Assembly (NCBI RefSeq): GCF_003334785.1
Contig: NZ_QOWV01000010.1
Source of the DNA: Escherichia coli
GTDB lineage: Bacteria; Pseudomonadota; Gammaproteobacteria; Enterobacterales; Enterobacteriaceae
Direction: 5' to 3' (one strand)
DNA: 64,000 nucleotides
Part shown: piece by piece, positions 2,664 to 5,018 of the stretch
Layout of the letters: the number at the start of each line of letters is the position of its first letter
Numbering within the stretch: position 1 is the first letter of the stretch
Program-made: the position numbers and the translations under genes
Notes under the pieces: generated by a model
Databases searched by the model: none
Seen by the model: the letters and a program-made list of their open reading frames with translations, nothing else
Told to the model about the DNA's origin: nothing

Positions 2664-3112
2664 AATTATAATAAATATTATTGTTGAGTGTTATATTATT
2701 ATTCCTGTGTGATACATTGAGCAAAGACGCGTTCATCTTCGTCAAAGATATTATTAAATGCTGGTTTTGAAAAAAGTTCATCGGATAAGATATAGTCACG
2801 AAATAAGTATCTGCTAATATTTTATGATTTCTTTTTCAGAACGTCGAACGGGATTTTCTTATTTAAGATATCAGAATCTTATGATTCGGGTAAAATTCTA
2901 AATAAATCAACATGTCATTAAAATCATCATAGCCATTAGCTATTTCGGCTAAAATAGAGACTACATGTCTTCGGTCCATCTCACTTAAGGAGTGTAGTTC
3001 CGTTGTAAGTTTTTCCATAGCTTGCACTGCTAAATTTCGAACAAGGAATTTTCTGCTGGTAATCTCTAAAAAGATGGCATGGTTTACAATGATTTTTGTT
3101 TCCTTTTGATTA

Positions 3113-3607
3113 TTATGAACAACTGTCCATGATTTCGTTTAAGAATGAAGAGAAATCACTAAACGAACTGAATATATTTTCTGTGCCAATATTATCTCTA
3201 ATTTCAAAAAAGTTACTTTTAATGTCATAAGTAAATATTGAAATGCTATAATCCCCGATCACTAACCGTTCTTGTAGATCAGGGTTTATGAAATCATCAT
3301 TATTTCTATAAAATTCATTTACGGCAAAAAGGTTTTTAACTGAAGGTTCTGGAATCGAGAGGCTAAATAATCGTAATCCATTAACTTCGAATCCATCCAT
3401 TGCTCTTAAAAAAGTAAGATAATCAGGTTGATTCTTAAAAAGAATACTAACTTCATTACATAACTTCTCCAGGCAATTAGTTGAATTAGAATTAAATTCT
3501 ATTTGGATTATACTTTCAATAAATGATTCCTTGAGCGGTGCTTCAAATGGATAGTCTAAATCATTCATCATTTTTATTAATTTATTTATTTGGGTTTTAG
3601 TCATCAT
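3113..3607 (-). CDS. yrhA: candidate immunity protein for the upstream Hcp-nuclease toxin (164 aa)
   Basis: ORF start ATG overlaps toxin stop by 4 nt (ATGA), implying translational coupling; acidic, AT-rich codon usage like the toxin gene; gene symbol from remembered synteny (yhhZ-yrhA), function is inference. Confidence 0.6.
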   Translation of the reverse strand: MMTKTQINKLIKMMNDLDYPFEAPLKESFIESIIQIEFNSNSTNCLEKLCNEVSILFKNQPDYLTFLRAMDGFEVNGLRLFSLSIPEPSVKNLFAVNEFYRNNDDFINPDLQERLVIGDYSISIFTYDIKSNFFEIRDNIGTENIFSSFSDFSSFLNEIMDSCS

Positions 3608-4782
3608 TTTGTGTGGTCCATAATATTTTTCATGGGAGGATAAATTGAGCCAGATGGAATGGCCCAGGGAGTGATTTTGCTTTCACCTACTAATATTCCC
3701 TTAGCTATTCGTGATTGCATGTTAGTAAAAACTTTATGATATGGTTCGTTTTCGATTAATACTAAATTTTCGAAATCATTAGTACCACCATCATCTAGAG
3801 ATAGTTTATGGTGAACATTATAATTTAGAGGAACATTGCCCTTTCTCATTCTTAAAAGGTCTTCGGCGTTGAATCTTCCAGATGCTTCGGAGGTTTTTGC
3901 AAGTTTGATAAGAAAATTTTTTCTTACAGTTTTATTAAACTCCTTTCGTAAGTTAGCTAAGTCTTTTGAAGGTCTCTTAATGTATATTATTTCTATTATG
4001 TCTATACCATCAAGAAGTTTTTGTTGACCTCTAAGTTTGCCTAAGTAACTATTTATTTCTGTATATGTATCAACATTAGAACGCTTTGTTAAAAGAATAG
4101 ATGCTGTTGCTATCGCTATGCCCGCTGTTTTTTCATTTAGTATTTGATCATAGCCTTTTATTGCATCTCCACCCAGTTTTTCCGCAGTATCTCTGAATCC
4201 TTCAATGTTCCCATTGTATACGCCACCAGCAGCAAGTAGCCTGCCAATAGCTTTGCTGTTTAACGTTTTGAAACGATTATTTGTTTGGTTTTTTGAATTT
4301 GGTAAAAACAAACGGTTATAATTTTCAGGGAGTGCCAAATAGCTGAACTCGGTATTTGCGATAAGATGTTGACAGAGGATAAATTCATAACTAATAGTTA
4401 TTGTTTCTGTATCCAGTTGGTTTTCAATGATCTGGTGATGAATAGCCGATAAAAAAGCGCCTCTTAGTTGTATATAATAATACTTTTCCAATCTACCAAA
4501 TCTATTTATTCGATAGAAGTCAAATCCCATAAATAATTGTTCATTATTGTTAATGGAATTAATAAATAATGGAGTGCTTTTATCAATTAATTTACAAAAT
4601 GTTATACCATGGAACTGTGAACCAAGCCCCGTATTATTAATATTATTTAAGAGTGAGAATGTAAATATTTCATCCTCATGCCCGCTCTGCCAACGATTAC
4701 CTGTAGACTCAGAAGTCCCACAACCTGCGGAGATGCTTCCTTGTTGTTCTCCCGTTACTGTCAGGTAAACAATATTACTCAT
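3604..4782 (-). CDS. yhhZ: Hcp (type VI secretion tube protein) with C-terminal extension carrying an HNH/beta-beta-alpha-Me nuclease motif (Hcp-ET type polymorphic toxin)
   Basis: 392 aa; N-terminal ~160 aa Hcp-like (MSNIVYLTVTGEQQGSISAGCGTSES...); C-terminal HH-x6-GG-x2-D-x2-N-x7-P-YH signature (NVHHKLSLDDGGTNDFENLVLIENEPYH); RBS AAGGA 9 nt upstream of ATG. Confidence 0.8.
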   Translation of the reverse strand: MSNIVYLTVTGEQQGSISAGCGTSESTGNRWQSGHEDEIFTFSLLNNINNTGLGSQFHGITFCKLIDKSTPLFINSINNNEQLFMGFDFYRINRFGRLEKYYYIQLRGAFLSAIHHQIIENQLDTETITISYEFILCQHLIANTEFSYLALPENYNRLFLPNSKNQTNNRFKTLNSKAIGRLLAAGGVYNGNIEGFRDTAEKLGGDAIKGYDQILNEKTAGIAIATASILLTKRSNVDTYTEINSYLGKLRGQQKLLDGIDIIEIIYIKRPSKDLANLRKEFNKTVRKNFLIKLAKTSEASGRFNAEDLLRMRKGNVPLNYNVHHKLSLDDGGTNDFENLVLIENEPYHKVFTNMQSRIAKGILVGESKITPWAIPSGSIYPPMKNIMDHTK

Positions 4783-5018
4783 CCCTGAAAAGTCCTTTTA
4801 TGGCATGCTATTTTATCAATGGCAATATTATGCTTGTTAATTGTTATTTATTTACTCCAGGAAATTGTAGGCGTATATATTAAAAAATAAAATATTACAC
4901 TTTAGGAAGTAATTATGAGTTAAATCTCAATATATGTATTGGGCAAATAAATACCTTAAAGGAAGGTATGTCGATTTTGAATGACACCCTTTTTCCATCT
5001 CAGAAAAAGGGCACTATC

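Follow-up and report, generated by a model that had tools for sequence, protein, structure and literature searches.

What does a toxin that resembles part of a type VI secretion system (T6SS) do in a stretch of chromosome with no genes for such a system? The question is raised by an AT-rich islet between the genes ggt and yhhY in a 64,000-nucleotide stretch of Escherichia coli DNA (contig NZ_QOWV01000010.1 of assembly GCF_003334785.1), the whole of which is referred to here as the window. The islet encodes YhhZ, in which the T6SS tube protein Hcp is joined to a predicted nuclease, and, directly downstream, YrhA and further small genes. Our analyses indicate that it is very probably a horizontally acquired yhhZ-yrhA-yrhD-yrhB toxin/immunity locus for interbacterial competition, in which YhhZ would be a T6SS-delivered DNase, YrhA its immunity protein and the genes further downstream relics. 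This locus is already known, having been described, annotated in RefSeq and studied experimentally as Hcp-ET1/ETI1. Its recognition in a preceding sequence-only reading of the window was correct and is of little consequence by itself; what our analyses add is a corrected boundary of the islet, an interpretation of yrhB and of a remnant at 2702-2860 as leftover immunity genes, the rejection of an addiction role, and a lead towards a wider toxin family.

The window is colinear with E. coli ETEC1732, to which it is 99.8% identical along its full length. The features annotated in the matching ETEC1732 stretch are ordinary chromosomal genes (ugpQ to hofQ) together with the islet, and none of the 56 is a T6SS gene, in agreement with the sequence-only reading, which had seen no T6SS structural genes in the 64 kb.

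YhhZ and its partner YrhA

The toxin and immunity features of the islet are as follows.

3604..4782, minus strand: yhhZ, an open reading frame (ORF) of 392 aa (ORF calling; annotated in RefSeq)
4333..4782, minus strand: YhhZ residues 1-150, Hcp (TssD) tube-protein domain (TIGR03344, Pfam T6SS_HCP, solved Hcp structures)
4090..4269, minus strand: YhhZ residues 172-231, conserved linker ('KTLNSKAIGRLLAAGGVYNGNIEGFR...GYDQILNEKTAG') with a small-residue hydrophobic end (five-sequence alignment)
3628..4020, minus strand: YhhZ residues ~255-385, predicted colicin/pyocin-type HNH (beta-beta-alpha-metal) DNase domain (model, Foldseek, family profile, motif)
3113..3607, minus strand: yrhA (= ETI1), predicted 164-aa SUKH-fold immunity protein for the HNH toxin (NCBIfam NF038335, AlphaFold2 model, structural matches)

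The first ~160 residues of YhhZ had been described as Hcp-like, and this was upheld by several comparisons. Residues 1-147 score 118 bits against the NCBIfam model TIGR03344 for Hcp1/TssD (curated cut-off 58.9), the N-terminus matches Pfam T6SS_HCP at 2.5e-11, and it also matches the solved Hcp structures 3he1, 6a2v and 5mxn (E 2e-11, or 5e-16 with a family profile). The extension C-terminal to Hcp comprises 240 aa, well above the >60 aa that define an Hcp with an extended toxin domain (Hcp-ET).

The HNH signature noticed in the C-terminus lies in a predicted nuclease domain of which an AlphaFold2 model could be made with confidence (predicted local distance difference test, pLDDT, 74-95 for residues ~260-380). 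The model has strands at 321-325 and 340-344 and a helix at 345-360, that is, a strand-strand-helix arrangement within 321-360, and its top Foldseek match is the pyocin S2 DNase (4qko_B; probability 1.0, root-mean-square deviation 2.5 A over 76 columns), other structural matches being the HNH domain of Cas8-HNH fusion proteins and the Gme HNH endonuclease. A YhhZ family profile matches the colicin E7 DNase at E ~1e-3, and the residues H324, H325, N339 and H349 are the same in all of 20 aligned relatives, which come from E. coli, Citrobacter, Enterobacter and Serratia. Together these results support an HNH/His-Me finger nuclease with the beta-beta-alpha-metal fold, as predicted by the model. 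Structure prediction had been put forward as a check on both halves of the protein; it bore out the HNH fold and did not do so for the Hcp half, as discussed below. In the full-length model the Hcp half and linker have pLDDT values of 22-55, and the nuclease domain is the part of the model that we used.

YhhZ shares with the colicin E7/E9 and pyocin S2 DNases both this fold and the HH...N...H motif. It differs from them in that its sequence similarity to such enzymes is marginal (in Pfam, HNH at E 0.013 and Col-Pyo_DNase at E 1.9), in its fusion to Hcp for delivery rather than to receptor-binding and translocation domains, and in being paired with a SUKH-fold YrhA in place of their four-helix Im proteins.

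The start codon of yrhA overlaps the stop codon of yhhZ as ATGA, which can be read directly from the sequence ('ACAAAATGATGAC') as the sequence-only reading had stated, and the two genes are translationally coupled through this overlap. The proposal that the downstream gene confers immunity is favored by its protein family and its predicted structure. YrhA scores 122 bits against the NCBIfam YrhA family (NF038335), and its AlphaFold2 model (pLDDT 90.7) has as top structural matches YobK (2prv), the SMI1/KNR4 protein 3d5p and 2icg, each with a probability of 1.0, followed by Syd (3ffv). YrhA itself had no match in Pfam or in a sequence search of the PDB. Among 34 aligned remote homologues, however, seven match SMI1_KNR4, five SUKH_6 and three SUKH_5 at E <= 0.001, the number matching SMI1_KNR4 rising to 13 at E <= 0.1. 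Because of the confident model matches and the SUKH Pfam matches of the remote homologues, we regard YrhA as a divergent member of the SUKH superfamily, which is the most frequent immunity fold for nuclease toxins of polymorphic toxin systems (PMC3482391). In addition, 16 related loci have a called ORF 3' of their HNH-type toxin, and in 13 of them this ORF belongs to the YrhA family. The gene directly downstream of the toxin in the window, yrhA, is its predicted matching immunity gene, and YrhA would neutralize the toxin. One residue of the protein sets the window apart: position 120 (3248-3250, minus strand), which sits in a conserved 'GDDSIS' stretch, is Y in the window and in ETEC1732, and D in the remaining E. 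coli alleles and in the homologues from Citrobacter that were compared.

The sequence-only reading had placed the islet at the yhhZ-yrhA position of K-12 and had conceded that it could not show the locus to be undescribed; both statements were apt. YhhZ of the window is 100% identical to that of K-12 MG1655 and has the same neighbors as there (yhhY, yrhD, yrhB and ggt), and E. coli 55989 has at this site a toxin identical at 391 of 392 residues and an immunity protein identical at 162 of 164. In 2009 YhhZ was termed an 'evolved Hcp' carrying an HNH domain (PMC2907695), and in 2017 it was placed in His-Me finger group 32 (PMC5714182). The orphan Hcp-HNH protein of 55989 and of O104:H4 C227-11 is Hcp-ET1, and the downstream gene is ETI1 (bioRxiv 10.1101/2024.03.05.583533). 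According to the accounts of Ma et al. 2017 (Virulence 8:1189) given in PMC6730261 and PMC6099711, Hcp-ET1, studied in STEC004, blocks bacterial growth via its predicted HNH DNase, its delivery requires T6SS2, and ETI1 is a characterized immunity protein that neutralizes it. The window and the Hcp-ET1/ETI1 loci of STEC004, C227-11 and 55989 have the same gene at the same chromosomal site, and the same arrangement of Hcp, HNH DNase and overlapping immunity gene. They differ in nothing substantial, the window having Y120 in YrhA instead of D120. From the K-12 pair (b3442/b3443) the window differs in that the K-12 yrhA carries a copy of the insertion sequence (IS) IS1E and the window yrhA is intact.

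These comparisons suggest how the pair may function. YhhZ would be a 'specialised' Hcp in which a linker (172-231) connects the tube domain (residues 1-150) to a colicin-like HNH DNase (~255-385). In strains with a T6SS the Hcp part would be built into the expelled tube, such that the nuclease would be fired into neighboring cells and cut their DNA, and YrhA would protect the producer and its kin. Tube incorporation, injection, DNA degradation and protection by YrhA are all proposed here because of the published work on Hcp-ET1, which is 99.7% identical to YhhZ. In strains that lack a T6SS, such as K-12, the toxin would be without a delivery route and would probably be kept silent by H-NS.

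The exchange site between ggt and yhhY

The islet is set apart from its surroundings by base composition. Its G+C content is 0.333 over 2379-5018, versus 0.55 for ggt, 0.517 for yhhY and 0.518 for the whole window, and windowed values are 0.28-0.36 from ~2550 to ~5000 and 0.5-0.6 on either flank. G+C at third codon positions is 0.26 in yhhZ and 0.24 in yrhA, versus 0.63 in ggt and 0.57 in yhhY. The sequence-only reading had given 17 G+C in the 60 nt at 3121-3180 as a mark of this AT-richness, a count that is exact and with which the other values agree. The composition of the islet is confirmed as foreign.

The ends of the variable region are marked by two features.

2349..2372, plus strand: ggt terminator hairpin, left boundary of the variable region (terminator scan; alignment of four locus states)
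4783..5018, no strand: non-coding AT-rich stretch upstream of yhhZ (G+C 0.297), right end of the variable region

The hairpin is the last sequence common to genomes in other states of the site, and alignment of the boundaries places the right limit at the yhhY stop codon (5019). The islet spans ~2379 to 5018, starting directly after the ggt hairpin rather than at 2664. The stretch at 4783-5018 is presumed to be the promoter region of yhhZ, although a scan of 2300-5100 for promoters and terminators gave promoter-like matches at the level of chance (14 found vs 12.1 expected), none of them within 4783-5018. Just beyond the islet, between yhhY and yhhX, lies the small RNA RyhB (5658-5722, plus strand; Rfam RF00057, 83 bits).

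At least four states of the ggt-yhhY gap exist in E. coli (identifiers beginning with L denote loci that we compared): it can be empty, leaving ggt and yhhY 60 bp apart (L002); it can hold nothing but yrhB (L004) or, as in the window, the complete set; and it can be taken up by an unrelated DUF4225-domain gene, as in O157 strain 644-PT8 (L003, 2276-3187). In Citrobacter portucalensis the same site is occupied by a 386-aa Hcp-Gln_amidase protein (PF15644) and an Imm35 protein, that toxin being 71% identical to YhhZ over residues 1-249 only and unrelated beyond, and in C. koseri by an Hcp-HNH protein and YrhA. The gap is a hotspot of toxin-cassette replacement. The foreign composition, the four site states and the cassette exchange in Citrobacter all favor the earlier suggestion of a horizontally acquired competition module within core DNA.

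A second suggestion of the sequence-only reading, that the islet could be an addiction module resembling a toxin-antitoxin system, in which loss of the immunity gene kills the cell, is contradicted by strain variation. The ATGA overlap, which couples the toxin gene tightly to the immunity gene, is what such a module would be expected to have. However, in K-12 MG1655 (L081, 3039-4310) yrhA is split by IS1E at nucleotide 390 alongside an intact yhhZ, as also reported in PMC12428005, and in strain AR_0013 (L015, 1014-1507) yrhA is frameshifted, again with yhhZ intact. Moreover, the islet region (at >=80% coverage) is found in 3758 of 5426 complete E. coli genomes (~69%), and roughly 30% lack the islet wholly and have a clean empty site. 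We therefore consider an addiction role extremely improbable. Membership of the type II toxin-antitoxin systems was likewise rejected, as yhhZ is kept intact with a disrupted yrhA in K-12 and AR_0013.

The persistence in K-12 of an intact nuclease toxin gene without an intact immunity gene argues against addiction and fits silencing of the toxin by H-NS. K-12 and B laboratory strains are reported to be without T6SS genes (PMC6730261), and 'promoter islands' inside yhhZ and yrhA of K-12 have been listed as H-NS-bound foreign DNA (PMC3661553). The immunity gene could be lost in T6SS-less strains because of the proposed silencing, which is the most economical account of an intact toxin gene beside a broken immunity gene.

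Silencing could also mean that yhhZ, in this strain and across much of the species, is a decaying relic, non-functional, turning into a pseudogene and persisting solely because H-NS makes the gene harmless. That possibility is partly compatible with a competition locus, as it concerns present-day function and not identity. It draws on the H-NS occupancy and T6SS-lessness reported for K-12, on the IS1 in K-12 yrhA and the frameshift in that of AR_0013, on two IS1 copies in strain WEM25 and an IS903B in another genome, on the many truncated protein clusters, and on the ratio of nonsynonymous to synonymous substitution rates (dN/dS), which for yhhZ is 0.35-1.08 among four E. coli alleles, an estimate resting on 8-31 substitutions per strain pair. 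Against it, the 392-codon frame is unbroken in the window as well as in the clusters that dominate the database (13,190 and 1,877 sequences), the catalytic residues are unchanged from E. coli to Pantoea and Serratia, dN/dS of yrhA is 0.09-0.46 among the same alleles, and the 99.7%-identical protein is reported in PMC6730261, in its account of earlier work, to be active in STEC, the E. coli that make Shiga toxin. On balance we consider it unlikely, although by no means negligible, that yhhZ is such a relic.

Several observations weigh against our interpretation of the islet as a functional T6SS-delivered toxin locus. Purifying selection on yhhZ within E. coli is weak or not measurable, and many copies in the database clusters are truncated or interrupted by insertion sequences. 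The AlphaFold2 model of the Hcp half is poor (pLDDT 22-38, from a shallow alignment), and because that half has no confident model, its capability to form tube rings is argued from the sequence matches given above. In YrhA of the window, residue 120 is Y, at a position where D or a different polar residue is found in the homologues compared. Finally, the window represents 64 kb of the genome, from which the presence of a T6SS in this strain is not visible.

Two further observations concern the history of the site. The islet is a frequent target of insertion sequences, as seen in WEM25, K-12 and the genome with IS903B. In addition, synonymous divergence (dS) of yhhY (5019-5507, minus strand) is 0.24-0.69, versus 0.01-0.08 for the islet genes yhhZ and yrhA across these four genomes (the window compared with L013-L015). 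The contrast could mean either that recombination has spread the islet recently or that the yhhY alleles belong to old lineages.

Probable leftover immunity genes downstream of the toxin

Three further features lie between yrhA and ggt.

2379..2663, minus strand: yrhB, 94-aa Imm35-family protein (Pfam Imm35, PF15567)
2702..2860, minus strand: decayed remnant, containing an in-frame stop, of a third immunity-type gene (~86 aa) (tblastn)
2863..3018, minus strand: yrhD, annotated 51-aa ORF of doubtful status (RefSeq annotation)

The sequence-only reading had treated yrhB as a core gene. It is instead accessory, being absent from E. coli with an empty site, standing alone in strain DJH_137urine, and matching Pfam Imm35 at E 4.6e-23 over the full length of the model. 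The Imm35 family has been reported in association only with Tox-PL1 (Zhang et al. 2012, PMC3482391), and the relatives of yrhB have partners of the corresponding kind. In C. portucalensis (L022) yrhB has a homologue of 73% identity that overlaps the stop of the Hcp-Gln_amidase gene, between yhhY and ggt as in the window, and in Pectobacterium a homologue lies 3' of a CdiA protein with a Gln_amidase C-terminus. Judged by these matches, yrhB is best read as an orphan immunity gene for a displaced glutamine-deamidase (Tox-PL1) toxin. The comparison extends to Hcp-ET5, a papain-like peptidase to which the Citrobacter Hcp-Gln_amidase protein would correspond, and to Tox-PL1/Imm35 pairs in general, which share with these loci the order of Gln_amidase (PF15644) followed by Imm35; the window differs from such pairs in that the matching toxin is gone and the immunity gene alone remains. 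A 3' remnant of a glutamine-deamidase toxin gene was sought between yrhA and yrhB, where only an immunity-gene remnant was found. Even so, yrhB would still guard its host against the glutamine-deamidase toxins of competitors. As the MG1655 record labels it a 'putative heat shock chaperone', an annotation as an orphan Imm35 immunity gene would be the better reading. It may be of use to annotators, as may the hotspot character of the gap and the intact toxin gene of K-12.

The remnant at 2702-2860 has 49% identity over 53 aa (tblastn, E 7e-14) to a gene of Citrobacter sp. FP75 that is located directly downstream of an Hcp toxin (L040:4752-5012), and an intact orphan copy of the same gene is present 3' of yrhA in C. 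youngae (L042, about 5185-5440). The status of yrhD is more doubtful: Pfam, NCBIfam and PADLOC returned nothing for it, the related loci compared gave no homologue beyond E. coli, and in other strains it has an internal stop or is partial.

Besides one live toxin/immunity pair, the islet holds leftover immunity genes in two layers or more, the pattern seen 3' of Rhs and CdiA toxins. It resembles those polymorphic toxins further in that the delivery part at the N-terminus stays constant, the junction has a conserved motif, the C-terminal toxins are exchangeable and have matching immunity genes, and orphan immunity genes lie downstream. It differs from them in its junction, which is a 60-residue linker without a Pfam match instead of PT-VENN or the Rhs PxxxxDPxGL motif, in the small size of the proteins (about 380 aa), and in that the N-terminal part is itself exchangeable (Hcp, DUF8093 or a third domain).

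The linker and its relatives across Enterobacterales

Residues 172-231 of YhhZ ('KTLNSKAIGRLLAAGGVYNGNIEGFRDTAEKLGGDAIKGYDQILNEKTAGIAIATASILL') are almost invariant across four architectures in a five-sequence alignment and match no Pfam family. Proteins of ~380 aa from Enterobacter, Leclercia, Pantoea, Serratia and Erwinia are 60-70% identical to YhhZ from ~172 to the end, and their N-terminal ~150 residues are not Hcp and carry the precomputed Pfam label DUF8093 (PF26362). A profile scan of one genome per bacterial species, using residues 172-231 only as query, returned 57 loci, all from Enterobacterales except two short contigs that are probable E. coli contaminants. Copies of the E. coli yhhZ locus with 97-99% identity were seen on a 4-kb contig of a Flavihumibacter metagenome-assembled genome (L024) and on a 256-bp contig of Alkalicoccobacillus porphyridii (L075), most likely reflecting E. 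coli contamination of those assemblies.

Clustering of the N-terminal parts at the linker loci gave DUF8093 (34), Hcp (13) and a third domain without a Pfam match (8), and the C-terminal parts fell into at least 13 groups. The HNH group and a second C-terminal group occur behind all three N-terminal domains, and two further groups behind two each. The gene directly downstream tracks the C-terminal group, not the N-terminal group, with the exception of one probable clustering artefact; the single-linkage merger of the genes downstream of DUF6883 toxins with YrhA is probably false, as Pfam calls one of them DUF4926. The precomputed Pfam labels name two of the groups with their downstream genes, Colicin_D followed by Colicin_immun and DUF6883 followed by DUF4926, and for the other toxin types tested NCBIfam recognized the Hcp part alone. 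Judged by these matches, the toxins behind the linker would include an HNH DNase, a colicin D tRNase, a glutamine deamidase and DUF6883. The linker is the junction for both exchanges, that of the N-terminal domain and that of the toxin.

This exchange of toxins bears on the possibility that YhhZ is an intracellular nuclease that acts in its producer without export, for instance in abortive infection against phages. HNH nucleases are frequent in defense systems and T6SS genes are far from the locus, both of which would suit such a role. Against it, PADLOC had no matches for YhhZ, YrhA, YrhD or YrhB, the Hcp domain has no known intracellular defense function, and the toxin domain is swapped (for colicin D tRNase, glutamine deamidase and others), each time with its own immunity gene, which is a signature of toxins aimed at other bacteria. 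An intracellular role is accordingly very improbable.

A different question is whether the Hcp part is what matters for delivery. It is conceivable that the linker matters instead and that export is independent of a T6SS, through lysis or another exporter. The linker-toxin cassettes behind DUF8093 and the third domain, which have no detectable similarity to Hcp, point in that direction, as do the lack of any T6SS gene conserved within 4 kb of those loci and the retention of the locus by T6SS-less strains. In profile-profile comparisons by hhalign, DUF8093 showed no similarity to Hcp (probability 0.5%); the third domain was also negative against Hcp (0.15%), and DUF8093 and the third domain matched one another weakly (7%). 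DUF8093 has no PDB relative by sequence, and no mention of its name was found in the literature searched. For YhhZ, however, Hcp is a dedicated T6SS tube protein, and the delivery of Hcp-ET1 is reported to be T6SS2-dependent in the accounts relayed by PMC6730261 and PMC6099711. Export of YhhZ independently of a T6SS is thus very improbable, and delivery as part of the T6SS tube remains the reading we prefer.

Tentatively, and with somewhat less than even confidence, we propose that YhhZ/Hcp-ET1 is the branch with a fused Hcp within a larger family of shuffled toxins, as yet undescribed, that is defined by the linker and has at least 13 toxin types and three N-terminal domains. The linker family may be new, unlike the rest of the locus, and the linker, which ends in a small-residue hydrophobic tail, might serve to get the toxin into the cytoplasm of the target cell. 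If the family is real, and if the route of delivery is set by the N-terminal domain, as it is for other polymorphic toxins, DUF8093 and the third domain would represent unrecognized delivery or loading domains, which could work via a T6SS or independently of one. The replacement of Hcp by DUF8093 is the sole part of these findings that could open a new question, namely, how toxins without Hcp exit the cell.

Two minor observations concern the surroundings of the linker loci. In the comparison of Enterobacter loci (L007, L010 and L011; 1-9500), several genomes have a DUF8093-HNH/YrhA-like pair immediately next to an integrase and a phage- or satellite-like gene block, which other genomes do not have at this site. 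A conserved 83-aa ORF ('MITETE.NVLK.MAEKDI.WNWIALDRALY...'), absent from the window, is present 3' of the immunity genes in six loci, including L022:5302-5553 and L040:5351-5602, and occurs behind all three types of N-terminal domain.

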